Assembly: GCA_038844785.1 (NCBI GenBank)
Contig: JAWBRA010000031.1
Coordinates: forward strand, 1-16,749
Direction: 5' to 3'
DNA from: Candidatus Caldarchaeum sp.
Lineage (GTDB): Archaea; Thermoproteota; Nitrososphaeria_A; Caldarchaeales; Caldarchaeaceae
DNA: 16,749 nucleotides
Part shown: piece after piece, positions 2,657-16,564 of the stretch
How positions within the stretch are numbered: the stretch's first letter is position 1
Layout: the number at the start of each line of letters is the position of its first letter
The notes under the pieces: model-generated
What the model saw: the letters and a program-made list of their open reading frames with translations, nothing else
What the model was told of the DNA's origin: nothing
Database searches by the model: none
Made by a program: the position numbers and the translations under genes

Positions 2657-3103
2657 TTAGTCGAATGTTGTTATCTCGGTTATGGACCCGCCCTTCTCTA
2701 TGATTTCTGTATCGACTGTTAATAACTTGCATCCGATTCTTTTGGCTAGGTACATGTATGCTGCATCATATATCGTTAGCTTCGTTGACTCGGCTATTCT
2801 TAGTATCTCGCTTAGATCGTCCCAGTCGATGTTATCTACGATTAGGCCGATGGCGCCCATGGCTTGAAGAGCTTTTTCACCATCCTCCAAGCTCATTTTC
2901 CCAGCCCTTATCGCCTTATTTATAACGGAGGCTAGCTCGTACAGGATTAATGATGGGCCATGTGCCTCGACCCGTCTATAAGCTATATCTTCGGCCAGGG
3001 CTCTCGCATTTTTCTCCCATTTTTCTCCTGGGATAATCCATTTGGCCGCGACACTCGCATCTACGACGATCTTCAGCTTCTCTCTCTGTCCTCCCTTATC
3101 CAT
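2657..3103 (-). CDS. vapC: PIN-domain VapC toxin
   Basis: IVVDASVAAKW, LILYEL, TIYDAAY and LLTVD: all four acidic PIN residues present. Overlaps the antitoxin; exact start uncertain. Confidence 0.92.
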   Translation of the reverse strand: MDKGGQREKLKIVVDASVAAKWIIPGEKWEKNARALAEDIAYRRVEAHGPSLILYELASVINKAIRAGKMSLEDGEKALQAMGAIGLIVDNIDWDDLSEILRIAESTKLTIYDAAYMYLAKRIGCKLLTVDTEIIEKGGSITEITTFD

Positions 3104-3365: not shown

Positions 3366-3941
3366 GGTACTGTCAACTTTTACTTTTCGGATAGGCCTAT
3401 GGCTTGAGATGTTCTCATCTGGTTATGCGTGTCAGAGTCCTCGTGGGAAGGCTTACGCTTCTCTTTTATTCTTGGCTGGCCTTAGGCTTAGGGATGTGTC
3501 TGAGAGGTATGGCTTCACAGATGCTTCTGGGGATGGTGTTAGGGGGTGGGTTCGTAGGCTGGGGAGAGCCTTCAACCCTATACGTAAGGCTGGTCGCGGT
3601 GGATGAGGCTGTCGAGAAGAGGCTTGGCGAAAGGGTCTATCTATGGTCAGCGGTAGACGTATACGCCTCTAAAGGCAGGCCCATTCTTAATGCCCTGGCG
3701 TTGCTGAGGATGCATGTGAGGGCATAGTCGTGGATAGGGGTCCATGGCATCCACTGGCATAGAATACTTCCACGAGACCTCTGGGAATAGGAACAAGACA
3801 GGACCAGAAGACTCCACAACAACACAAACTCCAAGACAGTAAAGAGTATAGAGGAGATAGCAGCAGCAATAGCCCTAATACATAACCTACTCCTCAGAAC
3901 CCAAACAAGAGAAGGAGGCGTAATACCTAGCTGACAGTACC
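3366..3941 (+). mobile_element. Internally deleted IS6-family element with both terminal inverted repeats (576 bp)
   Basis: Left end GGTACTGTCAACT (3366-3378); right end AGCTGACAGTACC (3929-3941, reverse complement GGTACTGTCAGCT), 12/13 match. No target-site duplication (GAAACGTT vs ATTAAAAT). Confidence 0.85.
3398..3934 (+). pseudogene. tnp: Frameshifted IS6-family DDE transposase
   Basis: Pieces in different frames: HTH 'LFLAGLRLRDVSERYG...VRGWVRRL', 'LVAVDEA...VYLWSAVDV', 'IVVDRGPW', 'GIEYFHETSGNRNK' and 'RTRRLHNNTNSKTVKSIEEIAAAIALIHNLL...GGVIPS*'. The TGA (3932-3934) lies inside the TIR. The catalytic Glu segment appears deleted; start position approximate. Confidence 0.85.
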
Positions 3942-4104: not shown

Positions 4105-5547
4105 ATGAACGTTCTGCAAAACTTCATCGGCAACGAATTTGTCGCCTCAAAGTCTGTTGAGACGATTCCAGTGTATAATCCTGCTTTCGACTCGGTAATT
4201 TCAAAAGTACCCATAAGCATGGAGGATGAGGTGGACAGCGCTGTGGAGGCAGGTGTCAGGGCTTTTGAAAAATTCCGCAAAACAACACCGTCGGAAAGAG
4301 TTGAATATTTGCTGAAGATCAGGACTTTGATCGAACGGGATACAGATCTGATTGCACGTGTTCTCGTCGACAACCACGGCAGGACATACTCAGAAGCCGT
4401 AGGCGAAGTTAGACGAAGTCTAGAAAACGTGGAGGCTGCCGCTGCTCTGGCTTACACACTGGCGAAAGGCGAAAACATGACCAACGTTTCGCCTGATATA
4501 GATCAAGAACTTATCCGAGAGCCTCTAGGCTGTTTCGCCATCATCACGCCTTTCAACATCCCGCTACACGCATGGTCATCATACGTGCCTTACGCAATTG
4601 CTTTAGGTGCTACGGTGGTTCTGAAACCGAGCGAGGTAACGCCGATGGTGGTCAACGAGATAGCTAGGATTGTGAAGGAGGCAGGCGTTCCGCCCGGTGT
4701 TATGAATGTTGTTCACGGCGACGGCCGTGTAGCTGAGAAGCTAGTGCAACACCCAGACATTCAAGGGGTTGGGTTCATAGGGTCTACGAGGACAGGAAAA
4801 CTACTGTATGAAGCCGCCGCCAAGATGGGGAAACGTGCTTCGATCAACGCGGGGGCGAAGAACCACCTCGTCGTACTGCCTGACGCCAATATGGAGAAAA
4901 CGGCCGAAGCCGTTGTTTCGTCGTTCTTCGGAATGTCGGGGCAGAGATGCTTAGCCGGCTCCAACCTTGTTGTCGTCAAAAACGGGGAGAAGATCGTTGA
5001 GCTGGTCAAGTCAAGGTCTTGGCTCCGCCTAGGCTACGGCATGGACAAGGAAACCGAAATGGGCCCCATGGCTTCGAAAACAGGTTTGGAAAGAGTTATG
5101 AAATTCATTGAAAGCAGTGAAACGGTTGGGAAGCTTCTGGTGGACGGTAGGTTGAACAAGCCCGTCAAACCGTTGAAAGGCTATTTCGTCGGGCCCACGG
5201 TTTTCGAAAACGTTTTGCCGAACAGCACGTTGGCGAAGGAGGAGATTTTCGGCCCCGTAGCCTCAATAATTTATGCAGAAAACCTTGACGAGGCAATAGA
5301 TTTGATAAATAAAAACACGCCTTACGGCAACGCCGCAGCGATCTTCACATCAAACCCACGGAAGGCCCGTGAATTTGTTCTGAATGTTAACGTCGGTAAC
5401 GTCGGCGTCAACATAGGTGTACCACAGCCCATGGCTTATTTCCCGCTCGGCGGGAGAAGAATGTCTTTCTTCGGAGTAGCTCATAGCAGGGTTGATACCT
5501 TAAGATTCTTTACCGACCATAAGATCGTGACAACGAGGTGGTGGTGA
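4105..5547 (+). CDS. CoA-acylating (methyl)malonate-semialdehyde dehydrogenase family aldehyde dehydrogenase (ALDH6/MmsA-like)
   Basis: 480 aa. ITPFNIP, LKPSE, GFIGST, 'NAGAKNH' (lacks the ELGG glutamate, typical of CoA-acylating MMSDH), catalytic 'GQRCLAG', EEIFGPV, YGNAAAIFT, 'VGVNIGVPQPMAYFPLGG..SFFG'. Confidence 0.92.
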   Translation: MNVLQNFIGNEFVASKSVETIPVYNPAFDSVISKVPISMEDEVDSAVEAGVRAFEKFRKTTPSERVEYLLKIRTLIERDTDLIARVLVDNHGRTYSEAVGEVRRSLENVEAAAALAYTLAKGENMTNVSPDIDQELIREPLGCFAIITPFNIPLHAWSSYVPYAIALGATVVLKPSEVTPMVVNEIARIVKEAGVPPGVMNVVHGDGRVAEKLVQHPDIQGVGFIGSTRTGKLLYEAAAKMGKRASINAGAKNHLVVLPDANMEKTAEAVVSSFFGMSGQRCLAGSNLVVVKNGEKIVELVKSRSWLRLGYGMDKETEMGPMASKTGLERVMKFIESSETVGKLLVDGRLNKPVKPLKGYFVGPTVFENVLPNSTLAKEEIFGPVASIIYAENLDEAIDLINKNTPYGNAAAIFTSNPRKAREFVLNVNVGNVGVNIGVPQPMAYFPLGGRRMSFFGVAHSRVDTLRFFTDHKIVTTRWW

Positions 5548-6155
5548 AGTTGGAGGCGGCGCCTGGAGTTGTTATCCGTAAAGTCGTGGTCTTCGCCGAC
5601 GAAACGCTTATTGAAAACGGTAGACGTCTTGACAAACCTGTCAGGAAAAGCGTCGCAGCCGCCGTAATCAAGAATCCATACGCTGGAAGATATGTTGAAG
5701 ATCTTCAACTGTTGATTGACGCAGGAGATTTTCTCGGTGGTTTCCTAGGCAGGAAAGCTCGTGAAACACTCGGCATCCCGCCTGCAGCTGTTGAAAGCTA
5801 TGGAAAAGCAGCCATAGTAGGCGTAGCCGGCGAGCTTGAACACGGCCATGCAATTCTTCATCCAAAGTTCGGCAGAGGATTGCGTGAAGAATGCGGTGGC
5901 CAAGATGTATGCAAAGCCATAATTCCCTCGGCTGCGAAAGTCGGCGGGCCTGGAACACCGATAGACGTCCCGCTCCACTACAAGCGGGCGGCGTTTGTAA
6001 GAAGCCATTACGACGCGGTAGAAATAAGGGTTTCCGACGCCCCAATGGCAGATGAGATCGTGGTCATAGCGGCGGTGACCGATTCTGGAAGACCTTTGCC
6101 GAGAATCGGCGGCTTGAAGAAAGAGGAGGTCAGGGGGGAAGATGGGCTACGTTAA
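5538..6155 (+). CDS. DUF1185 / AA_synth ('amino acid synthesis') family protein
   Basis: 'IRK..V..DE...E.G', 'AAAVIKNPYAGRYVEDL', 'ESYGKAAIVG..GELEHGHA..HP', 'AIIPS..KVG..G..IDVPLHYK...FVRSHYD', 'DAP.ADEIVV.......GRP..RIGG'. Start overlaps the ALDH stop (GTG at 5538, 5541 or 5544). Confidence 0.9.
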   Translation: MVVKLEAAPGVVIRKVVVFADETLIENGRRLDKPVRKSVAAAVIKNPYAGRYVEDLQLLIDAGDFLGGFLGRKARETLGIPPAAVESYGKAAIVGVAGELEHGHAILHPKFGRGLREECGGQDVCKAIIPSAAKVGGPGTPIDVPLHYKRAAFVRSHYDAVEIRVSDAPMADEIVVIAAVTDSGRPLPRIGGLKKEEVRGEDGLR

Positions 6156-7111
6156 AATAACCATTTGACCAGTCTTCTTTTTACGAAATCGACTATTCCG
6201 TTTCGGAAAAACGCAAGAAGGAACAGAAGTGTCAAACCATAAAGGATCTGCGTTAGAGGTCCGAGAAATTTCAAGGTCTCGTTTACGATAGAGATTATGG
6301 CTGAGCCTATGTAAGGACCGAGTAGGGTGGTTCTTCCGCCGAGGATGACGATAAGCTGGACAGGAATATCGATTGATGAAAAAGCAAAATATGAGGGCGC
6401 GATGAGCTGGGAAAACAGCCCGTAAAGAGCGCCTGCCAACCCAAGAAGCGCTGATGAAAACAGGGCTGTTAGACTTTTTACCCTAGAAACGTTTATGCCG
6501 ACGAGTTCGGCGCTGTTTTCATCATCTATGATACAACGGTAAGCGTATCCTGTTTTTGTGTGGAAAAGCAGGTAGTAGGAAGCCATGGTAACTGTCAGCA
6601 CTAAGGCCGCGGCAAGATAGTAGAAACGGAGGTTGTATGGTAGCGCGTCAAGAGGGCCGAGGCTTATCCCACGTATTCTAAAACCTGTCTCACCGCCGGT
6701 TATGCCTGAAAGACCTATGACAAGGTTGTTGAAGACAAGCGTAATGGCTAGAGTGAATATTCCTGTGAAGATAACGACAAGCCTGCGGCGGATAGATAAG
6801 ACGCTGACAACCCATCCGACGAAGGCAACCGCCAGCATGGAAACCAGCATGGCTTCAACAGGCCCCATCAAACCTTCTCTGAGAGATATTCCCGTAATAT
6901 ACGCACCCATCCCTATGAAAGCTCCTATACACAGGAAAAGCTGCCGCGTAAACCCGAAAAGAAAGTTAAACCCATAGGCGAAAACCGTGAAGAAAACCAT
7001 CTGCACCAATATGAAAATGACGTAAGGTGTGTTGATGAATAGAAGCGGTAACACTGTGTAAATGAGTATTAGCACTATGACAGCATTAAGCCTTGTTCTT
7101 TCTCTCACCAT
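6152..7111 (-). CDS. livM: Branched-chain amino acid-type ABC transporter permease (LivM-like)
   Basis: Hydrophobic; 'ITGGETG', 'TGYAYRCIIDDENSAELVGIN', 'ILGGRTTLLGPYIG'. Confidence 0.9.
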   Translation of the reverse strand: MVRERTRLNAVIVLILIYTVLPLLFINTPYVIFILVQMVFFTVFAYGFNFLFGFTRQLFLCIGAFIGMGAYITGISLREGLMGPVEAMLVSMLAVAFVGWVVSVLSIRRRLVVIFTGIFTLAITLVFNNLVIGLSGITGGETGFRIRGISLGPLDALPYNLRFYYLAAALVLTVTMASYYLLFHTKTGYAYRCIIDDENSAELVGINVSRVKSLTALFSSALLGLAGALYGLFSQLIAPSYFAFSSIDIPVQLIVILGGRTTLLGPYIGSAIISIVNETLKFLGPLTQILYGLTLLFLLAFFRNGIVDFVKRRLVKWLF

Positions 7112-7977
7112 TTCTCACCCACGATGCCATAGGGACGAAACAGTATGATAGCCATGATAAGAATTAGAAGAGCTACGTAGGCGAGGTAAGTACCTATGAA
7201 GAGGACGAGAAAAGTATAGGCTATTCCTATGACGAGGCCGGCTATTATTGTTCCATACACGCTGCGAATCCCGCCCACTACGCAGACAAGTAATCCGAGG
7301 ATTGTGAACTCTATTCCGCTTTCCGGCGCAACCGTGGCTATGATGCTACGGATTATCCCAGCAAGGCCGACGAGAAGTGCTCCCAGCATGAAAACCAGCA
7401 GACGATACTTCTTGACGCCTACTCCAACCATCAACGCACCTGTTTCGTTCTGGGTGAGGGAACGTATCGCCATACCGCTCCATGTTTTTCTGAGGAAAAA
7501 GTAAACTGCAACTAGGATGGTTGCTGAACCTATGCCGGTTACCAGCTGAGCTAGCCGAACCGTCAACCCCATGAAGTTTATGGATGTTATGGGCAGGTTG
7601 ATTGTAAGGAATGCGAGGGGGAAAGTTGTTATGATAGAGCTGTGGAGGAAAATTGAGAACGCGAGCGTCATGTAAAGGCCTAGAAGAACTCTTTCCTCAC
7701 CTTCAAGCTTGTAAACAGGCTGCAGAACGATTTTGTCGAGAAAGGCAGCTGCAGCAACTGCAACAGCTAGACCAGCTACTAAAGCTAAAGGCAGTGGAAA
7801 ACCCAACGTCTGCATCAAGACAGCCGAGGTTACTGTGCATACAACCAACAACTCGCCGTGAGCAAGGTTAAGCACACCAGCCAGACCATATATCAAAGTC
7901 AAGCCAGAAGCGATAAGCGAAAGAATCAAGCCGAAAACCACTCCATCTAGAAGAAACAACAGCAAACCAGAATCCAT
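7105..7977 (-). CDS. livH: Branched-chain amino acid-type ABC transporter permease (LivH-like)
   Basis: 'LIASGLTLIYG..GVLNLAHGE', 'GMAIRS..QN..GALMVGV', 'VVGGI.S..GT', 'FRPYGI.GE'. Confidence 0.92.
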   Translation of the reverse strand: MDSGLLLFLLDGVVFGLILSLIASGLTLIYGLAGVLNLAHGELLVVCTVTSAVLMQTLGFPLPLALVAGLAVAVAAAAFLDKIVLQPVYKLEGEERVLLGLYMTLAFSIFLHSSIITTFPLAFLTINLPITSINFMGLTVRLAQLVTGIGSATILVAVYFFLRKTWSGMAIRSLTQNETGALMVGVGVKKYRLLVFMLGALLVGLAGIIRSIIATVAPESGIEFTILGLLVCVVGGIRSVYGTIIAGLVIGIAYTFLVLFIGTYLAYVALLILIMAIILFRPYGIVGEKW

Positions 7978-7979
7978 CG

Positions 7980-8699
7980 TTACATCCCCAAATATTTTCT
8001 TACGAAAGCCTGTTTCGACAACCCTTCACGTATATCGCCGTCAAACACTATACGGCCGTTCGTAATTATGTACCCTCTGTCGCAGAGTTCAGCCGCTTGA
8101 GCAGTCCGTTGCTCGACTAGAAGTATAGACAGATCTTTCTTGTTTTCCATTATTTTCCGCAAGCCTGTAAAAATGCTTTTGACAAGTAGCGGAGCCAGCC
8201 CTGTGGAAGGCTCGTCGAGAAGCAGAAGCTTTGCATCTGTCATCAAAGCTCTTCCGATGGCCAGCATTTGCTGTTCGCCACCGCTCATCGTCCCAGCTTT
8301 TTGAAACTCTCTTTCCCTGAGTTTGGGGAAGATGCTGTAGACAAGTTCGAGGTTTTCCAAGGCTTTCTTCCTCGCCCTTGCGTTGAAGGCCCCTAGCAGC
8401 AGGTTTTCCTTTACAGTCATCTGTGGGAAAAGTTCTTTTTCAGCGAGTGCGAGGGCCACGCCCTCTCCGACAACTTTCTCAGGAGGCATGCCGTCGATTC
8501 GTTTCCCATCGAAGACTATTGAACCTTTTTTAGGTTTTACCAAGCCCGCGATAGTTTTAAGAAGGGTTGTTTTGCCAGCACCGTTGGGACCTAAAACGGC
8601 GACCACTTCTCCACGGTCTATGTTTATTGAAACATCCCAGAGAATTTGAATGTCGCCGTATCCAGCTGCAAGGTTATCCACTTTTAGAAGGCTGGACAA
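7980..8699 (-). CDS. livF: ABC transporter ATP-binding subunit (LivF-like)
   Basis: Walker A GPNGAGKT, signature MSGGEQQMLAIGRAL, LLLLDEPSTGLAP, VEQ switch. Likely start is TTG 8699 (MSSLLKVDNL) with GGTGAG upstream; the ORF track starts at 8723. Confidence 0.93.
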   Translation of the reverse strand: MSSLLKVDNLAAGYGDIQILWDVSINIDRGEVVAVLGPNGAGKTTLLKTIAGLVKPKKGSIVFDGKRIDGMPPEKVVGEGVALALAEKELFPQMTVKENLLLGAFNARARKKALENLELVYSIFPKLREREFQKAGTMSGGEQQMLAIGRALMTDAKLLLLDEPSTGLAPLLVKSIFTGLRKIMENKKDLSILLVEQRTAQAAELCDRGYIITNGRIVFDGDIREGLSKQAFVRKYLGM

Positions 8700-9438
8700 T
8701 TCTCTCACCCAAGTATGCTTCAATTACTTCTTCGTCGGCGACTATTTCTTCAGGCTTTCCCTCAGCTATCTTCACGCCTTGGTTTAGGACCGATACCTTG
8801 TCGGCTAGTGATGATACTGCGCTGATCACGTGCTCAACCCAAACGATTGTAAGGTTGTAGGTTTTTCTCAGTTCTTTGAAGAGCTCTATGGCGTCTTCTA
8901 TTTCGGCGGTGTTGAGGCCGCTCATGTACTCATCCACCATCAAAACCTTTGGTTTAGATGCTAGGGCTCTTGCGAGCTCCACTTTTTTCCTCTCCTGAAG
9001 GTTCAAAACAGCTGCTTTAAGGTTAGCTTTACTTGACAATCCAAACCTGTCCAAGAGTGTTGAAACATGTTTTTCCAGCTCTTCCATCGACATACGGCCG
9101 CTAAACAGCCCACCAGCCAAGACATTTTCCCAAACCGTCAAATCCTTAAACGGTCTAGGGATCTGAAGAGTTCTTCCAATACCGAGCCTAAAAACCTCGT
9201 AGGCAGGTTTTCCAGTTATGTCAACACCGTCGAGCAGAATCTTGCCTGATGAAGGCTTGTAGACGCCGTTTATCACGTTAAACAGCGTTGTTTTACCTGC
9301 TCCGTTAGGGCCGATGACGGCTCTGATCTCACCATCCTCAACCTCGATGTTAACGTTTCTCAGAGCCGGTAATCCGCCGAAAAACTTCGTCACATCAATG
9401 CACTTTAATATTATCTTTCCCAAACCATTCTCAACCAT
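8674..9438 (-). CDS. livG: ABC transporter ATP-binding subunit (LivG-like)
   Basis: 'KFFGGL.AL', GPNGAGKTT, 'GIGRTLQ..RPF', 'KKVELARALA..PKVLMVDE..SGL', VEH, C-terminal 'VIEAYLG'. Confidence 0.93.
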   Translation of the reverse strand: MVENGLGKIILKCIDVTKFFGGLPALRNVNIEVEDGEIRAVIGPNGAGKTTLFNVINGVYKPSSGKILLDGVDITGKPAYEVFRLGIGRTLQIPRPFKDLTVWENVLAGGLFSGRMSMEELEKHVSTLLDRFGLSSKANLKAAVLNLQERKKVELARALASKPKVLMVDEYMSGLNTAEIEDAIELFKELRKTYNLTIVWVEHVISAVSSLADKVSVLNQGVKIAEGKPEEIVADEEVIEAYLGERIVQPSKSG

Positions 9439-9449
9439 CTTCTCGTCGG

Positions 9450-9468
9450 AAAAAAGAAAGATAAAAAG
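9450..9468 (-). terminator. Oligo-T tract downstream of the binding-protein gene (candidate partial intrinsic terminator)
   Basis: Minus strand after the TAA reads CATCTTTTTATCTTTCTTTTTTCC in the 33-nt livK-livG gap; archaeal intrinsic termination uses oligo-U. Confidence 0.5.
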
Positions 9469-9471
9469 ATG

Positions 9472-10686
9472 TTATTTAGGTGGAACGTATGGTTCAACCG
9501 GCGGCGATGTGTAAAGGGTTTCAAGCACCCAGTTTGCTCCCGGGTTAACTTGACCCGGGTCTCCTCTTTTAATCACAGCAAGCCGCATCGCCGGCTTCTT
9601 GATCTCGCCCCACTCGGTGTAGGACAACGGCCATGCGAATATGGGATGGTTGAATTCATGTGTGCGGATATGGTTGGCAACAACAGCGGGGTCTGTTGAC
9701 CTTGTTTTTTCGACGGCGTCCGCGATCAACATCACGGTGACGTATCCAGATACCGCGTTATGGTCGAAGTATTTACCGTATTTCTGGTAAAATTTCACCG
9801 CTAGGTCACGGTATTGAGGCGTTTCTATGTTCACGCATGTGGTTGTAACAAGCTTGTTGAGGCCTATATCTCCGACCCCTCTAAGCATGAGCTCAGGCGG
9901 CTGGACTGACGCTATGTAATAGGCTGATTGGAAACCGAGTTCTATGGCTTGCTTGGTGATGACGGGGAACCCAGGCGGATGGCCGGTCAGTATCATGATC
10001 TCTGGCTGGAGGGATTGAAGCTTCCGAAGAACAGTTGTGAAGTCGGTTTCACCCAGAGGTGCTTCCTCAATCTGGAACTGCACTCCCGGAATTTCCCTCA
10101 GCCTTTTCTCCAAAACCTCCTTGATGGCAAAACCCCATTCATAGCTGGCTATAACCACGCCGACTTTTTTATAGCCCTTGTCGCGGACAAAGTTGGCGAG
10201 AAGCTCGCCGTTAGTAGGAGCGGGCGGCAAACAGGTTCTAAACGTGTAGCGGGAATCCTTGGTTAAGATTGTGTGTGAGCCGGCTGCTATGAGGAAAAGC
10301 GGAACCTTCGCCTGCTCCGCTTCAGCCGTCAAAACGGCGCCTATTCCGCTCGAAATAGTCCCCACCACAGCGGTTACATGGTCAATCTCCGCCATCCTTT
10401 TAAATATCGCCACAGCCTCCTTCGCGTCGTTTTTTTCGTCAGCCTCGATGAGAACGAGCTTCGCCCCCAGAATGCCTCCTTTGGCGTTTATTTCGTCGAC
10501 AGCAAACCGCATACCATTAAGTGTGTAGTCACCGTAGATAGCGAAAGGGCCTGTCAAAGGAACAAGGGCCCCTATCTTCACTTCAGATACTTCAAGTCTT
10601 TGCTGTGAAAGAAACAGGAAGACACCAGATGCCGCGACAGCTACTATGACTACGGAAATAATAGCAACAAATACTGATTTTTTCAT
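9472..10686 (-). CDS. ABC transporter substrate-binding protein (LivK/LivJ-like, type 1 PBP), N-terminally anchored
   Basis: N-terminal hydrophobic helix; 'VKIGALVPLTGPFAIYG', 'AVDEINAKGGILG', 'AVVGTISS', 'YTFRT', 'TDFTT.L.KL'. Confidence 0.92.
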   Translation of the reverse strand: MKKSVFVAIISVVIVAVAASGVFLFLSQQRLEVSEVKIGALVPLTGPFAIYGDYTLNGMRFAVDEINAKGGILGAKLVLIEADEKNDAKEAVAIFKRMAEIDHVTAVVGTISSGIGAVLTAEAEQAKVPLFLIAAGSHTILTKDSRYTFRTCLPPAPTNGELLANFVRDKGYKKVGVVIASYEWGFAIKEVLEKRLREIPGVQFQIEEAPLGETDFTTVLRKLQSLQPEIMILTGHPPGFPVITKQAIELGFQSAYYIASVQPPELMLRGVGDIGLNKLVTTTCVNIETPQYRDLAVKFYQKYGKYFDHNAVSGYVTVMLIADAVEKTRSTDPAVVANHIRTHEFNHPIFAWPLSYTEWGEIKKPAMRLAVIKRGDPGQVNPGANWVLETLYTSPPVEPYVPPK

Positions 10687-10710
10687 GGTTTTTCTACCAT
10701 TAGTGGTTGC

Positions 10711-10724
10711 TTTTAAATTTTTGC
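10711..10724 (-). promoter_or_regulatory. Candidate internal TATA/BRE promoter for the transporter genes
   Basis: Minus strand GCAAAAATTTAAAA overlaps the LLM stop codon, about 25 nt upstream of the SBP ATG (10686); no SD sequence. Confidence 0.45.
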
Positions 10725-11705
10725 GTTGTAAATACGTGAATAAAGATCTTGCGTGATTCTAAGAAGCTGTGTCTTTTCAAACGTCACTGGGTTAAGAACT
10801 ATCCAGTCAACACCCTCAAGAGACATGATGCGTTTCTTAATTTTTTCCGCAACCTCGTCAACGGTGCCGTAGAGGTAATAGTTTTTCCAATACTCAAGAT
10901 TCATACCTGAGTATAGAGAGAAGCGTTTTACGGCTTCGTTGTCATCCTCCCCAGGACTACGGATGTAGACAAAGTTTGAATATATCTTTGTTATTCTATA
11001 GGGGTCGCGCCCCAGCTCCGCTGCATATTTCTTCAGTTTCTCCCAATCCTGCGCCGCCATCTCTGGCGTTACGCTTGAATGCGGAATCCATCCATCCGCA
11101 AACTTGGCTATGCGTAAAAGAACCTTGTCAACTCCCTTTGCAGCAGTGCCGTAAAGAATTTCGTGCGGCTGGCTTCCGCCGCCAATCCAGACGGGAGGAT
11201 GTGGTTTCTGGACTGGTTTAGGCTCAAGAACAAGATCTTTCACGTTAAAATATCTGCCCTCAAAAGTTGTTCTATATTCTGTCCAAAGCTTTTTGAGAAG
11301 AGCAAGGTATTCATCCATTATCGCGCCCCGTTTTTCCAGCGGGGTGTTGAGCAGTTTGAATTCGTCGACGTTCCAGCCCACACCCGCTCCAAGAACAAAT
11401 CTCCCGCCAGAATAAACGTCCAGAGACGCTGTCTGTTTTGCGACGAGATAGGGATTCCTAAGAGGTAGCACCATCACCATAGGGCCTACAACGGCGTTCT
11501 TTGTCGCTGCCGCGACGAAAGAGAGGGCAATTAACGGGTCGTGCCAGCTCGTTGAATACGCGGGCCGCGATGTAAGCAGATGGTCGATGACGAAGAATCC
11601 CTGAACACCGAGTTGTTCGGCCTCAGCGACGTAGTTTCTTAAGACCTCTCCCGATGAAAAATCACCAGGCCGTGTATATGTTGGAAGACGGAGACCGAGC
11701 TTCAT
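10713..11705 (-). CDS. Luciferase-like (LLM) oxidoreductase, probably F420-dependent (Rv2161c-like)
   Basis: 330 aa TIM-barrel motifs: 'FVIDHL', 'DPLIALSFVAAAT', 'LPLRNP..VAKQ.ASLD..SGGR..LGAGVGW...EF', 'PKPVQKPHPPVWIGG', 'ADGW'. 1-nt gap after the enamidase stop. Confidence 0.88.
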   Translation of the reverse strand: MKLGLRLPTYTRPGDFSSGEVLRNYVAEAEQLGVQGFFVIDHLLTSRPAYSTSWHDPLIALSFVAAATKNAVVGPMVMVLPLRNPYLVAKQTASLDVYSGGRFVLGAGVGWNVDEFKLLNTPLEKRGAIMDEYLALLKKLWTEYRTTFEGRYFNVKDLVLEPKPVQKPHPPVWIGGGSQPHEILYGTAAKGVDKVLLRIAKFADGWIPHSSVTPEMAAQDWEKLKKYAAELGRDPYRITKIYSNFVYIRSPGEDDNEAVKRFSLYSGMNLEYWKNYYLYGTVDEVAEKIKKRIMSLEGVDWIVLNPVTFEKTQLLRITQDLYSRIYNAKI

Positions 11706-11706
11706 T

Positions 11707-12891
11707 CTAATGACCTCCCTCGGGAATCCGAGCCGCTCCTTCGGTCTTTATCTGCCTCGTTGGAGGAGGTGTCATTCGACTGCGGCCTACACGTGGAATA
11801 CCGTCAACCATCACCATCGCGATGCCAGGAATGTCGCCGACTGAAAACGCTTCGAGAGCATCCTTGCCGACCGAGCCGTAGGGCGCATCAACGACTAAAA
11901 GGTCTGCAGGTCTCTCAGGTTCGAGAATGCCTTCATTCAGTCCAAAGGCTTTGGCTGTGTTGCCTGTCGCGGCGCAAACGACTTTCTCAGCCTCGACGCT
12001 GGTGTTGGATGCGATAAAGGAAATAGTCCTTATTATTCCTAAGGGAATAACACCGGTTCCTGAGGGGGCATCGTTTCCAATTATCAATCTGTTCAGCTGG
12101 TTACGTGACTGGAGTATTCTGACTGTTTCTATCATGGATTTGAAGTTACCACATTGGACAACTTCGATGGCTGAATCTGTGTCTTCGATTATTTTCCGGA
12201 TGTCTGTTAGGGATGGTGATGTGGGTCCTCCATTAATGTGTGACACGACGTTTGGCTTTACCTTCATGACTACTTCGGCGTTGATTATTGTACTGCCTGG
12301 TATTGAAGCTCCGCCTGTGTGGATTACTACTTTCATACCGTGTTTCTGGGCTATTCTCACTAAAGCAGCGGCTTCATCTGGGTCTTGAACGCTTCCAAGA
12401 CCAACTTCACCAACCAGCCAGACACCGGCCTTCACCACCTCTTCAAAATCAGCTTCAACCAACCCCTTCTCAAGTAACAAAGCACCGGCGTGAATCTTCG
12501 CCCCAAGAGGCCGGAGGTTTTTAAAGGTTTTGTGGGCTAAGATTGCAAGGGCCTTCGCTGCTTCCTTATCACCACGTGGCCTACCCGGCAGATGCACTTC
12601 ACCCGCTGAGATGAATGTCGTCACACCTCCGTTGACCGAAGATTCTATAAAGCCGAGAGTGTTTTGCCTTGGTGTGAAATCTCCGAAAACCGGGTGAACA
12701 TGGGAATCAAACAGTCCGGGAATCACCGTCATGTTGTTGACGTCAAAGACCCCGTCGGCTTGGCGTGAAATGTTCCAACCGATTTCCTCTATGACTCCAT
12801 TGCTGATGTATATGCTGTCGCCGCTGACTACAGGCTTGTCGATGTTTCCCGAAACTATTTTTCCAATGTTTTTAATCAGAATGGTTTTCAT
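11707..12891 (-). CDS. ena: Enamidase (amidohydrolase superfamily), homolog of Eubacterium barkeri Ena
   Basis: Colinear with Ena as recalled: 'IKNIGKIVSG', 'PGL.D.HVH...GD..PRQ', 'GGVTT.ISAG..H.PGRP', 'GVW.VGEVGLG', 'HTGG.SIPGS', 'VVSHINGGPT', 'E.VQCGN', 'GNDAPSGTG.IPLG', 'GDIPGI', 'SR.TPP'. The HxH, E, H, H, D binuclear metal ligands are all present. Confidence 0.88.
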   Translation of the reverse strand: MKTILIKNIGKIVSGNIDKPVVSGDSIYISNGVIEEIGWNISRQADGVFDVNNMTVIPGLFDSHVHPVFGDFTPRQNTLGFIESSVNGGVTTFISAGEVHLPGRPRGDKEAAKALAILAHKTFKNLRPLGAKIHAGALLLEKGLVEADFEEVVKAGVWLVGEVGLGSVQDPDEAAALVRIAQKHGMKVVIHTGGASIPGSTIINAEVVMKVKPNVVSHINGGPTSPSLTDIRKIIEDTDSAIEVVQCGNFKSMIETVRILQSRNQLNRLIIGNDAPSGTGVIPLGIIRTISFIASNTSVEAEKVVCAATGNTAKAFGLNEGILEPERPADLLVVDAPYGSVGKDALEAFSVGDIPGIAMVMVDGIPRVGRSRMTPPPTRQIKTEGAARIPEGGH

Positions 12892-12894
12892 TCG

Positions 12895-15234
12895 TCATCC
12901 ATTTGTTCTCAACTTATTTTTATTGTTTTTCATGCTTTCCCAAAGTTGTTGAGATGAGATGTGCGACCGGTTTATTCGGATTTTTAAAGCATCCTCAACA
13001 GCATTGGCTATTGCAGCTGCAACAGGTATCAACGGACCTTCACCCATACCTTTAGACCCAAGTTCAGAAAACAAAGACGGAGTCTCCAGATGGTCGACTA
13101 AAATCTCCGGGGTCTCAACAGATGTGGGCAAAAGATAATCGACGAAAGACGATGTCAAAATCTGTCCATTCACATCGTAAACAATTCTTTCATAAAGGGT
13201 TGCGCCAATCCCCTGCACTATCCCGCCCACTATTTGGCCGTCGACGATTTGTTTGTTCAAGATTTTGCCGCAGTCATGGACTGCGACGTACCGTAGTATT
13301 GTCGGTTTGAATGTTTCGGGATCAATTTGCACTATTGCGATATGCGTGGAGATACCGTAAGTGGCTGACATGTTGATTTCGCCTGCAACACCTGTGTTGA
13401 ATGTTGGGAAGTCAAAGAAATGTTCAGCCTGAAGTGAGGTGTGGTTACGTGTTTTGACGTTGTCGCGGTATGCTTTTGCGGCAAGCTGTTCTAACGAGAT
13501 GGAGGAGTCCGACCCTTTTACATAAATTGTTCCGCCGCGGATTTCCAGATCGTTTGCAGAGGTTTCGAGAAGTTCGGAAGCTATTGATAGGATACTGCGT
13601 TTTAGTTTCTCGGCGGCTTTTTTCACAGCAGCCGTCGTCATCACGCTGAACCTACTTGCCCAAGTTCCTCCGTAGGGGCTTGGGTAAACTACGTCGGAAT
13701 CGCCGAAAACAATTTTAACATGCTCAGGCTTTACGTTCAGGGTTTCGCAGACTATTTGTGTGAGGACGGTTTCATGGCCTTGACCCTGTGGAATCGATGC
13801 CGCGTAAACAGTTATGGTTCCCGATTCTTCGAGGCGAACTATCGCTCCTTCCCCTGAGCCAGACGTTTCAAGATGGGGGAAGAGAAGTTTGTTCCGTGCA
13901 AGGTTCGTTACCGCAGGTTCTACAACACACGCTATTCCTATCCCCACGTTTTGTTTACCCGCGAATTTTTCGGGCTCGGCAAGTTTCCACGCTCTTTCTA
14001 ACACTGCTTTATAGTCACCGCCATCATACAAACTGCCGAAAACTGTTCGGTACGGCTGTTGACTTTTGTCGACCATGTTTCGGAAACGGATTTCAAGAGG
14101 AGATAATCCGACCTGCTTCGCCACAATATCCATCATTCTTTCCAAGACAAAGTATGCCTGCTGACATCCATAGCCACGGACAGGGCCCGTAGGACATTTG
14201 TTAGTAAATACCACTTTCAACTCGACGTCAACATTACGAATGTCGTAGCAGCCGAGATAAGTCATCAACGAACGCACCACCCCTCCTGGGTCTGGAAGAC
14301 GAGCGTAGGCCCCCACATCCTCAATGAACCTCGTCCTGTACGCAGTAATTTTCCCATCACGTTTAACCGCCATTTCAGCATGAGCTATTCGGTTAGAGTT
14401 ATGAGCCATGGCTGCAATATGTTCTGAACGTGTTTCGAACCATTTCACGGGTAGTCCAGTATGCATGGCTGCGAAAGCTACAAGAAAGACAATCGGATAG
14501 AGCATTATTTTGACGCCGAAACCTCCACCGATGTCTCGTTGAATCAGCCTGATTCGCTCCGGCTTAATTCCGAGAGAGCGTGCGACAATACTACGAAACA
14601 GAAGAGGAGTTTGCTGATTATCGTATATGTTCAGCTTCCCATCCTTCTCCGGTTTTACTACTACCCCACATGTTTCAATTGGACATGCTGCATACCGTTC
14701 GAAAATGAATTTTTCAGAAACAATTTCATCAGCTTCGTCAAACATCTTTTCAACATCGCCAAACTTGAAACGTTGGCTTACGGCGATGTTTGTCCCAAGG
14801 TTTTCATGTATAAATGTGGACGAGCTAAGCGATTCTTCTGGGTCTACAACAGGGGGGAGAGGCTCGTAATCGACGTATACTTTTTCGGCAGCGTCCAAGG
14901 CATCTTCCAACGATTTAGCGAGCACCATGGCTACGGGCTCGCCGTAGAACCTAACTTTATCAACCGCTATCCCATAGTAAGCAACATCTTTGATGAGTGT
15001 ATAGAGAGGCTTTGTCTTAAAAGCTATAGTTTTTCCGTCAAAAACAGCGTCGGCGGTTTTTAAGGCTTCGGAAAAATCGGTTGAGAGAATTCGTGCGTGA
15101 GGGTAGGGACTTCTTACAAAAACCAAGTGAAGCATCTTTGGGAAAGAAATGTCGTCGACATATACCGCCTGACCGCGTAGAAATCTTGGATCCTCGACTC
15201 TTCTGCTTAATTTCAACCTTTTTAAGGTTTCCAA
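12895..15234 (-). CDS. Xanthine dehydrogenase/CoxL-family molybdopterin-binding large subunit (heteroaromatic hydroxylase; HmfA-like motifs)
   Basis: 779 aa, TTG start. 'RRVEDPRFL.G...YVDD', 'VRSPYPHARI', 'IGGGFGVK', active-site loop 'GPVRGYG', 'QGQGHET', 'ASR', 'DCG..LN...VDGQI.GG..QG.G', and 'KGMGEG' with the catalytic Glu. Confidence 0.93.
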   Translation of the reverse strand: METLKRLKLSRRVEDPRFLRGQAVYVDDISFPKMLHLVFVRSPYPHARILSTDFSEALKTADAVFDGKTIAFKTKPLYTLIKDVAYYGIAVDKVRFYGEPVAMVLAKSLEDALDAAEKVYVDYEPLPPVVDPEESLSSSTFIHENLGTNIAVSQRFKFGDVEKMFDEADEIVSEKFIFERYAACPIETCGVVVKPEKDGKLNIYDNQQTPLLFRSIVARSLGIKPERIRLIQRDIGGGFGVKIMLYPIVFLVAFAAMHTGLPVKWFETRSEHIAAMAHNSNRIAHAEMAVKRDGKITAYRTRFIEDVGAYARLPDPGGVVRSLMTYLGCYDIRNVDVELKVVFTNKCPTGPVRGYGCQQAYFVLERMMDIVAKQVGLSPLEIRFRNMVDKSQQPYRTVFGSLYDGGDYKAVLERAWKLAEPEKFAGKQNVGIGIACVVEPAVTNLARNKLLFPHLETSGSGEGAIVRLEESGTITVYAASIPQGQGHETVLTQIVCETLNVKPEHVKIVFGDSDVVYPSPYGGTWASRFSVMTTAAVKKAAEKLKRSILSIASELLETSANDLEIRGGTIYVKGSDSSISLEQLAAKAYRDNVKTRNHTSLQAEHFFDFPTFNTGVAGEINMSATYGISTHIAIVQIDPETFKPTILRYVAVHDCGKILNKQIVDGQIVGGIVQGIGATLYERIVYDVNGQILTSSFVDYLLPTSVETPEILVDHLETPSLFSELGSKGMGEGPLIPVAAAIANAVEDALKIRINRSHISSQQLWESMKNNKNKLRTNG

Positions 15235-15983: not shown

Positions 15984-16340
15984 TTATCCGTTTTCCAACC
16001 TTATTTCCAAGCCAAGGCCATCCAATTTTTTGAACTCCTTGTCTGAAGTAGCCAGCGTCAGGTTTTTTGCTTTAGCGGATGCTGCTATAAGCAGGTCGGC
16101 TTCTGGAACTTTCAAACCCCGGCCCCTTAAAGCATCGTATATGTCGCAGTACTCCATTATGACCTCGTTGTCCAACGGTATGATTTCGTATACCTTTTCT
16201 AGACTTGTTTTCACTTGATTACGTTTCTCCGCCGCTACTCCTCTCAAAACCTCTACCAACGTAATGACGCTGATACATCCTTCTATAAGCTTGCCTTTCT
16301 GCAGCGATTTTATCAGAATGCTCGTATCTAACAACATCAT
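15984..16340 (-). CDS. vapC: PIN-domain VapC toxin
   Basis: MLLDTSILI, SVITLVEV, PEADLLIAASA, LATSDKEF; ATGA overlap with the antitoxin. Confidence 0.93.
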   Translation of the reverse strand: MMLLDTSILIKSLQKGKLIEGCISVITLVEVLRGVAAEKRNQVKTSLEKVYEIIPLDNEVIMEYCDIYDALRGRGLKVPEADLLIAASAKAKNLTLATSDKEFKKLDGLGLEIRLENG

Positions 16341-16564
16341 CGCAACGTGAACTCCTTTCTGAAAGCCTTAGACTCCTCGAGTATTCTTTCAAGCTCTTCT
16401 TTAGACAAGGTTTTCCTGAGCCTTTCGAACGCCTCCAGCTTTCGCCTTCTTCTAGCTTCCGAATACAGCTGTAGCAGGTATTCTCCCCAATCGCTGTCTC
16501 CCTTGTTTCTTTTAAGGATTTCCTTTACTCGCTTCGGAACAGAAATAGTTGAATAATTATTCAA
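16337..16564 (-). CDS. vapB: Antitoxin (archaeal VapB, 'YSTISVP..VK..L..KGD..W' type)
   Basis: 75 aa, TTG start with GGTGA RBS; TTATAT at 16603-16598; translationally coupled to vapC. Confidence 0.88.
   Translation of the reverse strand: MNNYSTISVPKRVKEILKRNKGDSDWGEYLLQLYSEARRRRKLEAFERLRKTLSKEELERILEESKAFRKEFTLR

Follow-up and report, generated by a model that had tools for sequence, protein, structure and literature searches.

The closest described counterparts of the system considered here are bacterial pathways that degrade nicotinate through 1,4,5,6-tetrahydro-6-oxonicotinate (THON). The nicotinate fermentation cluster of Eubacterium barkeri was reportedly described by Alhapel et al. in 2006 and is said to encode NdhFSLM, Hnr, Ena, Hgd, Hmd and 2-methyleneglutarate mutase, and Azorhizobium caulinodans is said (Kitts, 1992) to use an aerobic THON pathway to glutarate. 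To our knowledge, THON-route nicotinate catabolism has been characterised biochemically only in bacteria, and the genes for its glutarate/glutaryl-CoA branch have not been assigned; the literature that we searched contained no gene assignment for this branch. One account describes THON, a bifunctional enamidase and (S)-2-formylglutarate in both E. barkeri and A. caulinodans (PMC9304392). Here we analysed a window that comprises the entire 16,749-bp contig JAWBRA010000031.1 (C31) of a Candidatus Caldarchaeum sp. genome (1.74 Mb, 57 contigs, 95% complete), on which a ten-gene cluster that includes an enamidase gene occupies positions 4105-15234. We consider it reasonably probable, judging from comparative genomics, that this cluster encodes a variant THON (ring-reduction) pathway of nicotinate catabolism in Ca. 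Caldarchaeum-like archaea.

In the proposed pathway, a Liv-type ABC system would import nicotinate or a very close pyridine carboxylate, and a CoxL-type Mo hydroxylase, acting with [2Fe-2S] and FAD subunits encoded elsewhere, would convert it to 6-hydroxynicotinate. A luciferase-like (LLM) oxidoreductase, probably with F420H2, would then reduce 6-hydroxynicotinate to THON, replacing the iron-sulfur flavoprotein Hnr, and the enamidase would open the THON ring to give 2-formylglutarate and NH3, with a DUF1185 protein assisting at or near this step. Finally, an MmsA-type aldehyde dehydrogenase (ALDH) would turn 2-formylglutarate, CoA and NAD(P)+ into glutaryl-CoA and CO2, in place of the E. barkeri route via 2-(hydroxymethyl)glutarate and a B12 mutase. 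Three parts of this scheme are predicted to be non-orthologous to their counterparts, namely the CoxL-type hydroxylase, the LLM reductase, which interests us most, and the MmsA-type ALDH. A first-pass annotation of the same DNA had proposed a catabolic pathway of this kind and had named no characterised archaeal version. Comparative genomics supports the former, and the literature that we searched describes no archaeal, F420-linked or ALDH-type version of the pathway, with the proviso that supplementary tables of Aigarchaeota papers might still list the cluster. No earlier pyridine-ring degradation cluster appears to have been assigned to Archaea.

Enamidase and the conservation of its gene set

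The proposal starts from what we observed: the gene content of the cluster, the orthology of its enamidase, the conservation of the set and two patterns of mutual exclusion. From there we infer all substrates, the cofactor of the LLM protein, which subunits CoxL works with and what becomes of glutaryl-CoA. Pfam and NCBIfam alone gave the enamidase generic amidohydrolase matches only. Against the PDB, its full length aligned with the enamidase of E. barkeri (2VUN, EC 3.5.2.18; residues 3-382 against 3-384; 418.7 bits, E=2.2e-124), the second-best match being a dihydroorotase (E=1.9e-07). By this comparison the amidohydrolase is a true full-length ortholog of the E. barkeri enzyme, as the first-pass annotation had it. 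Its nearest database proteins, 75-85% identical, come from Ca. Caldarchaeum and related archaea; below about 60% identity there are thousands of bacterial homologs, some of them annotated as enamidase at source, and enamidases within canonical nic clusters are 54-58% identical to it. An alignment of 13 archaeal and bacterial enamidases has 105 invariant columns, among them H64, H66, H191, H218 and D274; H64 and H66 make up the putative metal-binding HxH motif. In an 85-row tree, the window-type enamidases fell inside the nic-cluster family, with paralogs of 41-46% identity as the outgroup. Furthermore, the enamidases of LLM-bearing (LLM-type) clusters formed one clade in this tree (SH-aLRT 89), composed of eight Caldarchaeales rows (support 100) and of four bacterial rows plus one truncated contig (support 99).

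We then found the gene set conserved together in other genomes. Among an even set of 401 genomes of the phylum, 17 carry an enamidase ortholog (14/16 in the host's own family, 1/15 in the sister family and 1 distant). Mapping of the ten window proteins onto 14 ortholog loci of these relatives showed that CoxL adjoins Ena in all 14 and that LLM lies next to Ena in 13, the contig of the remaining locus stopping inside Ena. Eight of the 14 loci have the full set of ten genes, and the core recurs in Methylomirabilota/Rokubacteria and on metagenome contigs. One related genome lacks the ABC genes between LLM and the DUF1185-ALDH pair, and two Ca. Pelearchaeum genomes (g2) have CoxL-Ena-LLM by themselves; in one of these, G106, the ALDH-DUF1185 pair is intact on a separate contig. 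This detached pair (L152; G106:C10:31500-51400) adjoins a gene for an ETF-QO-like FAD oxidoreductase (562 aa), which may have to do with the transfer of electrons from an acyl-CoA dehydrogenase, and the same locus holds a 501-aa protein without a Pfam match beside the pair.

Six sibling genomes of the same genus, though not the host (G000), also carry a second enamidase paralog of 41-42% identity. At two of the paralog loci (L060, G026:C1:357152-376833; L061, G058:C4) a CoxL paralog (33-34%) and ABC ATPase genes lie nearby, and a weak LLM-like match (27%) was seen in L060 only. This second cluster may act on another heterocycle.

To place the window among known clusters, we surveyed 80 enamidase loci sampled from a one-genome-per-species collection with a query alignment of 13 enamidases. 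They comprise five Caldarchaeales loci, one from an Archaeoglobi metagenome-assembled genome (MAG) and, for the rest, bacterial loci from Bacillota, Desulfobacterota and relatives, Methylomirabilota/Rokubacteria, Armatimonadota and Actinomycetota. The loci were queried with the window genes and with the nic genes of a Neomoorella locus (L097), ALDH being counted at an identity of at least 38%. L097 is a canonical nic cluster with genes for an MFS transporter, NdhF, NdhS, split NdhL/NdhM, Ena, a 503-aa 4Fe-4S protein, an ApbE-like protein and DUF1185, and further for Hgd, Hmd, a B12 mutase, a PrpF-family isomerase and a GlmL-like protein. At E<=1e-60 its NdhL matched only nicotinate dehydrogenase 3HRD in the PDB, and the best match of its Hgd was 3CKY, a 2-hydroxymethylglutarate dehydrogenase; we take the 503-aa protein to be Hnr from its position and from PMC3511419. 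Longest-ORF calling yielded spurious antisense frames in the high-GC loci L129, L134 and L141, and four open reading frames (ORFs) of L129 had no Pfam match.

Across the 80 loci we counted DUF1185 in 62, Hnr in 59, NdhM in 54, NdhL in 52, ApbE-like genes in 51, ALDH in 32, Hmd or mutase in 16, LLM in 9 and CoxL-type genes in 6. LLM and Hnr never occurred together (LLM only, 9; Hnr only, 59; neither, 12), nor did ALDH and Hmd/mutase (ALDH only, 32; Hmd/mutase only, 16; neither, 32). When the count is restricted to the 38 non-Caldarchaeales loci that extend 5 kb or more to each side of Ena, Hnr was present in 34, DUF1185 in 35, and ALDH and Hmd/mutase in 15 each. The Archaeoglobi MAG (JdFR-42; L077) has an enamidase of 56% identity with a canonical Hnr (49%) and an ApbE-like gene (40%), and DUF1185, Ndh and ALDH were not found within 10 kb on either side. 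Since the Ena-Hnr-ApbE-like trio of this MAG is the canonical one, the LLM variant is not the only one that Archaea have.

Proposed ring reduction and fate of 2-formylglutarate

The first-pass annotation had assigned ring reduction to the LLM protein, and the absence of any locus with both LLM and Hnr agrees with that assignment. A tblastn search of the host genome gave no homolog of Hnr, ApbE-like, Hmd or Mii proteins; the Hnr query was the one that detects Hnr in the survey loci. Hnr was also not found in four bacterial LLM-type genomes or in the single-contig related genome G026, a search that had no positive control of its own. On these grounds the LLM protein is likely to be a 6-hydroxynicotinate reductase that stands in for Hnr. 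We also used an LLM alignment as the query, which retrieved 80 metagenome loci independently of how the enamidase loci had been chosen. At LLM identities of at least 44%, Ena and/or DUF1185 were adjacent in 11 of 15 loci, and in three of the other four the LLM gene lies at a contig edge and is followed by Ndh genes. At identities of 42% or less, neither Ena nor DUF1185 was present (0/65), and Hnr occurred in none of the 80 LLM loci.

The bacterial loci of this subfamily are informative about the rest of the module. LLM is followed either by a CoxL gene that belongs to the subfamily of the window CoxL or by an NdhFSLM set. L160 reads DUF1185-Ena-LLM-NdhF-NdhS-NdhL-NdhM, its NdhL and NdhM being 44% and 49% identical to those of Neomoorella, and LLM adjoins canonical-type NdhF/S/L(/M) genes (43-50% identical to Neomoorella) in L160, L164 and L166 alike, which ties the LLM module to nicotinate dehydrogenase itself. 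L130 runs from a CoA-transferase III and an enoyl-CoA hydratase through a binding protein, a fused LivHM, LivG and LivF to Ena, DUF1185 and LLM, after which a CoxL-like gene begins at the contig end; L134 has Ena, DUF1185, LLM, CoxL and a second LLM. The family III CoA-transferase (683 aa) and the hydratase of L130 (L130:2443-5303) lie upstream of the transporter genes, and no ALDH is present on this 13-kb stretch; these genes hint that the C5-dicarboxylate product is dealt with in another way here.

The cofactor of the LLM protein is likely, though not securely, F420. The protein scored 201 bits against the F420-dependent LLM family TIGR03619 (cut-off 166.9). The host encodes CofE (283 bits) and CofD (337.8 bits), both over their cut-offs, and CofE was found in all five LLM-type hosts tested, the four bacterial ones included, as against 3 of 14 control genomes; it is also present in G026. 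CofH exceeded its cut-off in 2 of the 5 LLM-type hosts tested. We do not regard F420 use as secure because FO synthase was not found in the archaea (see below) and because the PDB relatives of the LLM protein are weak and mostly FMN enzymes; the FO headgroup would either be scavenged or come from an unrecognised route.

For the aldehyde dehydrogenase, the first-pass annotation had proposed an oxidative decarboxylation, and two lines of evidence agree with this. The ten best PDB matches are all methylmalonate-semialdehyde dehydrogenases (MSDH; 317-350 bits), other ALDHs reaching at most 249 bits, and its 'GQRCLA' and 'GAKNH' motifs align with 'GQRCMA' and 'GAKNH' of ALDH6A1; an Arg before the catalytic Cys and an Asn replacing the general-base Glu of hydrolytic ALDHs are hallmarks of MSDH. 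Furthermore, because ALDH loci and Hmd/mutase loci are fully exclusive, the ALDH is supported as an alternative exit from 2-formylglutarate. By chemical reasoning, 2-formylglutarate is a 2-substituted 3-oxopropanoate like methylmalonate semialdehyde, and an MSDH-type reaction on it would therefore yield glutaryl-CoA and CO2. We searched the host for the enzymes of the other exit as well: a mutase ortholog was not found in the host genome (two weak, partial B12-domain-like matches, about 28-29% identity over some 150 of 617 residues), and apart from this there were generic HIBADH-family matches elsewhere in the genome. ALDH homologs occur in 29 of the 75 non-Caldarchaeales loci, and many of these (within L069-L140; many Desulfobacterota, with some Bacillota, Armatimonadota and Actinomycetota) combine an MmsA-like ALDH with Ndh, Ena, Hnr, ApbE-like and DUF1185 genes, often together with Liv-type ABC genes. 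Several have the Ndh large subunit as one fused gene (716-808 aa) rather than as split L and M. This ALDH-type nic cluster is apparently widespread and undescribed in bacteria.

The DUF1185 protein, which matches PDB 2QTP (E=6e-65), is a conserved companion of the enamidase. In addition to its place beside Ena in most survey loci, it is 48-69% identical to the copies in nic clusters, and within the order the genomes that carry it are precisely the 16 with Ena. Elsewhere in Thermoproteota, eight genomes of family f12 have DUF1185 without Ena (for example L150 and L151; G024 and G096), next to genes for MFS, DJ-1/PfpI, methyltransferase, B12-binding and aminotransferase proteins, neighbours that give no hint of its function. 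The structure paper on this family inferred a function in the metabolism of amino acids from Liv-type ABC neighbours and a chorismate-mutase-like fold, and nicotinate goes unmentioned in the accessible part of its text (PMC2954203). Because of the DUF1185 counts at enamidase loci, the Pfam name 'Amino acid synthesis' is probably an artefact of context. Since DUF1185 is found with both branches, it would act upstream of the point at which the ALDH and Hgd routes diverge.

Hydroxylase, importer and alternative readings

The molybdenum hydroxylase was identified in the first-pass annotation as the enzyme of ring hydroxylation, and here the outcome was mixed: a CoxL-like large subunit is present, but it is not an ortholog of nicotinate dehydrogenase (NDH) and has no small or medium subunit beside it. 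Its best PDB matches were CoxL 8UEM, CutL, 6-hydroxypseudooxynicotine dehydrogenase 7DQX and quinoline 2-oxidoreductase 1T3Q (369-415 bits), and NDH 3HRD of E. barkeri gave 166+119 bits only. The active-site loop reads PTGPVRGYGCQQ, where 8UEM and 1FFU read 'AYacSFR' and 'AYrcSFR'; 'PVRGYG' stands at the position of the 'AYxCSFR' of carbon monoxide dehydrogenase, the catalytic Glu is retained, and the loop aligns with that of Kdh/Qor. We rejected a form I aerobic CO dehydrogenase, since the CSFR loop is missing and the score against TIGR02416 was 450.6 (cut-off 991). In two trees (27 and 35 rows), the archaeal cluster CoxL, the bacterial LLM-type CoxL and the resident paralogs lay in one strongly supported CoxL-like subfamily. 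In bacterial LLM-type loci the position after LLM belongs to either CoxL or NdhFSLM; it is this positional equivalence together with the constant adjacency to Ena, and not orthology, that makes CoxL the candidate ring hydroxylase. Host Cox genes are spread over contigs C1, C3, C6, C7, C15, C17, C19, C30, C31 and C52. Seven host CoxL genes, that of the window included, have no adjacent S or M gene, and a CoxM-CoxS pair on C15 (about 20.9-22.2 kb) has no adjacent CoxL, for which reason it is a candidate shared partner.

The importer set of the HAAT/Liv type is complete (a PF13458 binding protein, two PF02653 permeases and two PF00005 ATPases with PF12399), and all its proteins scored far below the cut-offs of the NCBIfam Liv/Urt equivalogs. 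The binding protein is 81-92% conserved in related clusters, and LivG homologs of 35-48% identity accompany many bacterial nic loci. Uptake of the substrate by this system, as first proposed, is in keeping with the putative nicotinate ABC transporter that one report gives for proteobacterial nic clusters (PMC3511419). Nicotinate or a related acid would be the ligand of the binding protein, whose PDB relatives do not single one out.

Several findings weigh against the pathway as proposed. Many of the 80 enamidase loci are truncated contigs. Since the LLM-type enamidases form one clade, the exclusion of LLM and Hnr would amount to about one ancient swap followed by inheritance or transfer, not to many events; the reductase swap was probably one old event, with vertical descent and cross-domain transfer thereafter. 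Neither the contig nor any of 17 related loci carries a CoxS or CoxM gene, and the genome as a whole has 12 CoxL-family genes against 4 CoxS and 5 CoxM. The ALDH falls just below the cut-off of its family (TIGR01722, 430.6 bits against 448.5; next family 308) and is only 39-46% identical to the ALDHs of bacterial nic clusters. A glutaryl-CoA dehydrogenase, for which a search of the host genome had been suggested, was not found: the best of six acyl-CoA dehydrogenases scored 258.5 against a cut-off of 470.

A rather unlikely alternative is that the same LLM/enamidase/DUF1185/ALDH core acts on something other than nicotinate, be it another N-heterocycle or a pyridone or lactam that is hydroxylated or partly reduced before its import, or that CoxL is an aldehyde oxidoreductase. 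In its favour, orthology of CoxL to canonical NDH was ruled out, bacterial NdhLM forming a separate clade (support 99-100), and orthology to the bacterial LLM-type CoxL was not supported either, each being sister to a different resident paralog: the Caldarchaeales cluster CoxL is a clade of its own (support 100) next to paralog C1:83733, and the bacterial LLM-type CoxLs form another (support 100). The best NCBIfam match of CoxL, below its cut-off, is glyceraldehyde dehydrogenase alpha, and its PDB relatives act on quinoline and 6-hydroxypseudooxynicotine. The binding protein has no ortholog among those of bacterial nic loci (22-27% identity), and the second cluster of the sibling genomes, with its paralogs of Ena and CoxL, shows that modules of this type diversify. 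Against this stand the position of the enamidase inside the nic-cluster family, apart from the outgroup paralogs, the similarity of DUF1185 to nic-cluster copies, and the adjacency of the same LLM subfamily to canonical-type NdhFSLM in three loci; moreover, a CoxL that oxidises an aldehyde would duplicate the ALDH.

Less probable still is a reading in which LLM works without F420, as an FMN-dependent monooxygenase or otherwise, and at a different step, for example an oxygenation, with the THON reductase encoded elsewhere. Its best PDB matches, although weak (at most 66 bits), are indeed mostly FMN-dependent luciferase-like monooxygenases, and FO synthesis is not apparent: CofH had no match in the host and only a chance-level one in G026 (19.8 bits, E=2e-4; cut-off 374), and CofG was found in none of five genomes (the host, single-contig G026, G010, G309 and G130). 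However, the TIGR03619 score and the occurrence of CofD and CofE argue for F420, no Pfam match in the cluster indicates a flavin reductase, and the complete anti-correlation with Hnr goes together with a tight linkage of the subfamily of at least 44% identity to Ena and DUF1185. The enamidase, furthermore, requires a ring that has already been reduced, and the genome-wide searches gave no Hnr. We consider it very improbable that the locus is an ordinary amino-acid module (a Liv importer, MmsA for valine and DUF1185) beside an unrelated amidohydrolase and CoxL. This reading draws on family names (LivFGHM-like, MMSDH-like, AA_synth) and on the binding protein, whose nearest PDB entries are branched-chain amino-acid (Leu/Ile/Val) binders at no more than 89 bits, with weaker matches of about 50 bits to entries such as 4EY3/4EVS. 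Yet synteny of the entire set holds across the order, homologs of ALDH and DUF1185 turn up again in bacterial nic clusters, and DUF1185 tracks the enamidase. The amino-acid reading of DUF1185 itself rests on Liv-type ABC neighbours (PMC2954203), and such transporters in nic clusters are, in another report, putative nicotinate transporters (PMC3511419).

Nicotinate catabolism through THON is thus the reading that we prefer. A fuller version of it, which we hold only tentatively and regard as possible, is that the LLM subfamily of at least 44% identity is a new F420H2-dependent substitute for Hnr that displaced the ferredoxin-dependent Hnr once and moved between Methylomirabilota-like bacteria and Caldarchaeales, that the ALDH is a dedicated CoA-acylating, decarboxylating 2-formylglutarate dehydrogenase, and that DUF1185 is a near-universal but overlooked component of THON pathways, so that jointly they would form the first archaeal pathway for an N-heterocycle (vitamin B3).

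The arrangement of the genes, called from an ORF listing and from Pfam/NCBIfam scans, is given in the table below. All ten ORFs lie where the first-pass annotation had placed them and belong to the families that it had named, eight on the minus and two on the plus strand. Recomputed gaps are 3 nt between CoxL and Ena, 1 nt between Ena and LLM and 26 nt between LLM and the binding-protein gene, in line with the tight packing first noted. The ALDH and DUF1185 genes overlap by 10 nt and meet the end of LivM with a 4-nt overlap, which bears out the convergence on this pair. Scans of the window for tRNA genes and Rfam families gave no match.

Features of the 16,749-bp window (positions on the contig; aa, amino acids)
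Feature	Position	Strand	Family assignment
MmsA-type ALDH, 480 aa	4105-5547	+	NCBIfam TIGR01722, best family match
DUF1185/AA_synth protein, 205 aa	5538-6155	+	PF06684, 235 bits
LivM-like ABC permease	6152-7111	-	PF02653
LivH-like ABC permease	7105-7977	-	PF02653
LivF-like ABC ATPase	7980-8723	-	Pfam/NCBIfam
LivG-like ABC ATPase	8674-9438	-	Pfam/NCBIfam
Liv-type (Peripla_BP_6) substrate-binding protein	9472-10686	-	PF13458
Luciferase-like (LLM) oxidoreductase, 330 aa	10713-11705	-	TIGR03619, F420-dependent class
Enamidase ortholog, 394 aa	11707-12891	-	full-length match to 2VUN
CoxL-like Mo-hydroxylase large subunit, 779 aa, unsplit	12895-15234	-	Pfam Ald_Xan_dh_C, MoCoBD_1 and MoCoBD_2
Flanking PIN (VapC-like), three, and VapB-like, one	654-1058, 2657-3103, 15984-16340, 16337-16564	- (all)	Pfam
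Other ORFs	2-457, 1181-1510, 1341-2183, 3404-3727		no Pfam match

Comparison with known clusters

The cluster and its bacterial relatives offer candidates for a ring reductase with another cofactor, for the step from aldehyde to glutaryl-CoA and for the function of DUF1185. If the proposed pathway is correct, hot-spring Caldarchaeales would scavenge heterocycles derived from a B vitamin for carbon and nitrogen. An F420-dependent LLM enzyme at the reduction step would be a further case of F420H2-dependent C=C reduction in the LLM fold, of which few are known, with a possible use in biocatalysis, and through the MmsA-like ALDH the glutarate/glutaryl-CoA branch would gain the genetic basis that it lacks, in Desulfobacterota as well, where this branch is also common.

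With clusters of the E. barkeri type, as seen in the Neomoorella locus, the archaeal cluster shares the enamidase ortholog, a Mo-hydroxylase gene directly upstream of it, the DUF1185 gene that L097 and the majority of such clusters have, and the predicted logic of hydroxylating, reducing and hydrolytically opening the ring. It differs in that its host has no Hnr, ApbE-like, Hmd, Mii or mutase ortholog, that its hydroxylase is of the unsplit CoxL type without adjacent S, M or F subunits, and that it has LLM for Hnr, an MmsA-type ALDH for the reductive B12 branch and an ABC importer for the MFS transporter. From A. caulinodans and Bradyrhizobiaceae we know a THON route in a non-fermenter with a product at the glutarate/glutaryl level, as would be the case here. 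Their clusters, in the accessible part of the published account, likewise include an ABC transporter and conserved proteins of unknown function but, unlike the archaeal cluster, keep an Hnr homolog (42% to that of E. barkeri; PMC3511419); the same text names no enzyme for the step from 2-formylglutarate to glutarate.

The ALDH-type nic clusters of Desulfobacterota, Bacillota and others resemble the window in having an MmsA-like ALDH (39-46% identity), no Hmd or mutase and often Liv ABC ATPases, whereas they use an Ndh-type hydroxylase and Hnr. When compared with MmsA, IolA and ALDH6A1 themselves, the window ALDH has its best PDB matches and its 'GAKNH'/'QRC' motifs in common with them and, by chemical reasoning, a substrate of the 2-substituted 3-oxopropanoate type; it differs in its score just short of TIGR01722 and in its setting in a nic cluster instead of valine or inositol catabolism. 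The LLM-type clusters of Methylomirabilota/Rokubacteria and metagenomes (L129, L130, L134, L141, L153-L167) have the same Ena-DUF1185-LLM core, often with Liv ABC genes and a CoxL of the same subfamily, and they have enamidases that form the sister group of the archaeal enamidases (SH-aLRT 89). They differ from the archaeal cluster in their identity of only 44-55%, in the place of DUF1185 between Ena and LLM, in the use of NdhFSLM instead of CoxL by some (L160, L164, L166), and in showing no ALDH within the available flanks.

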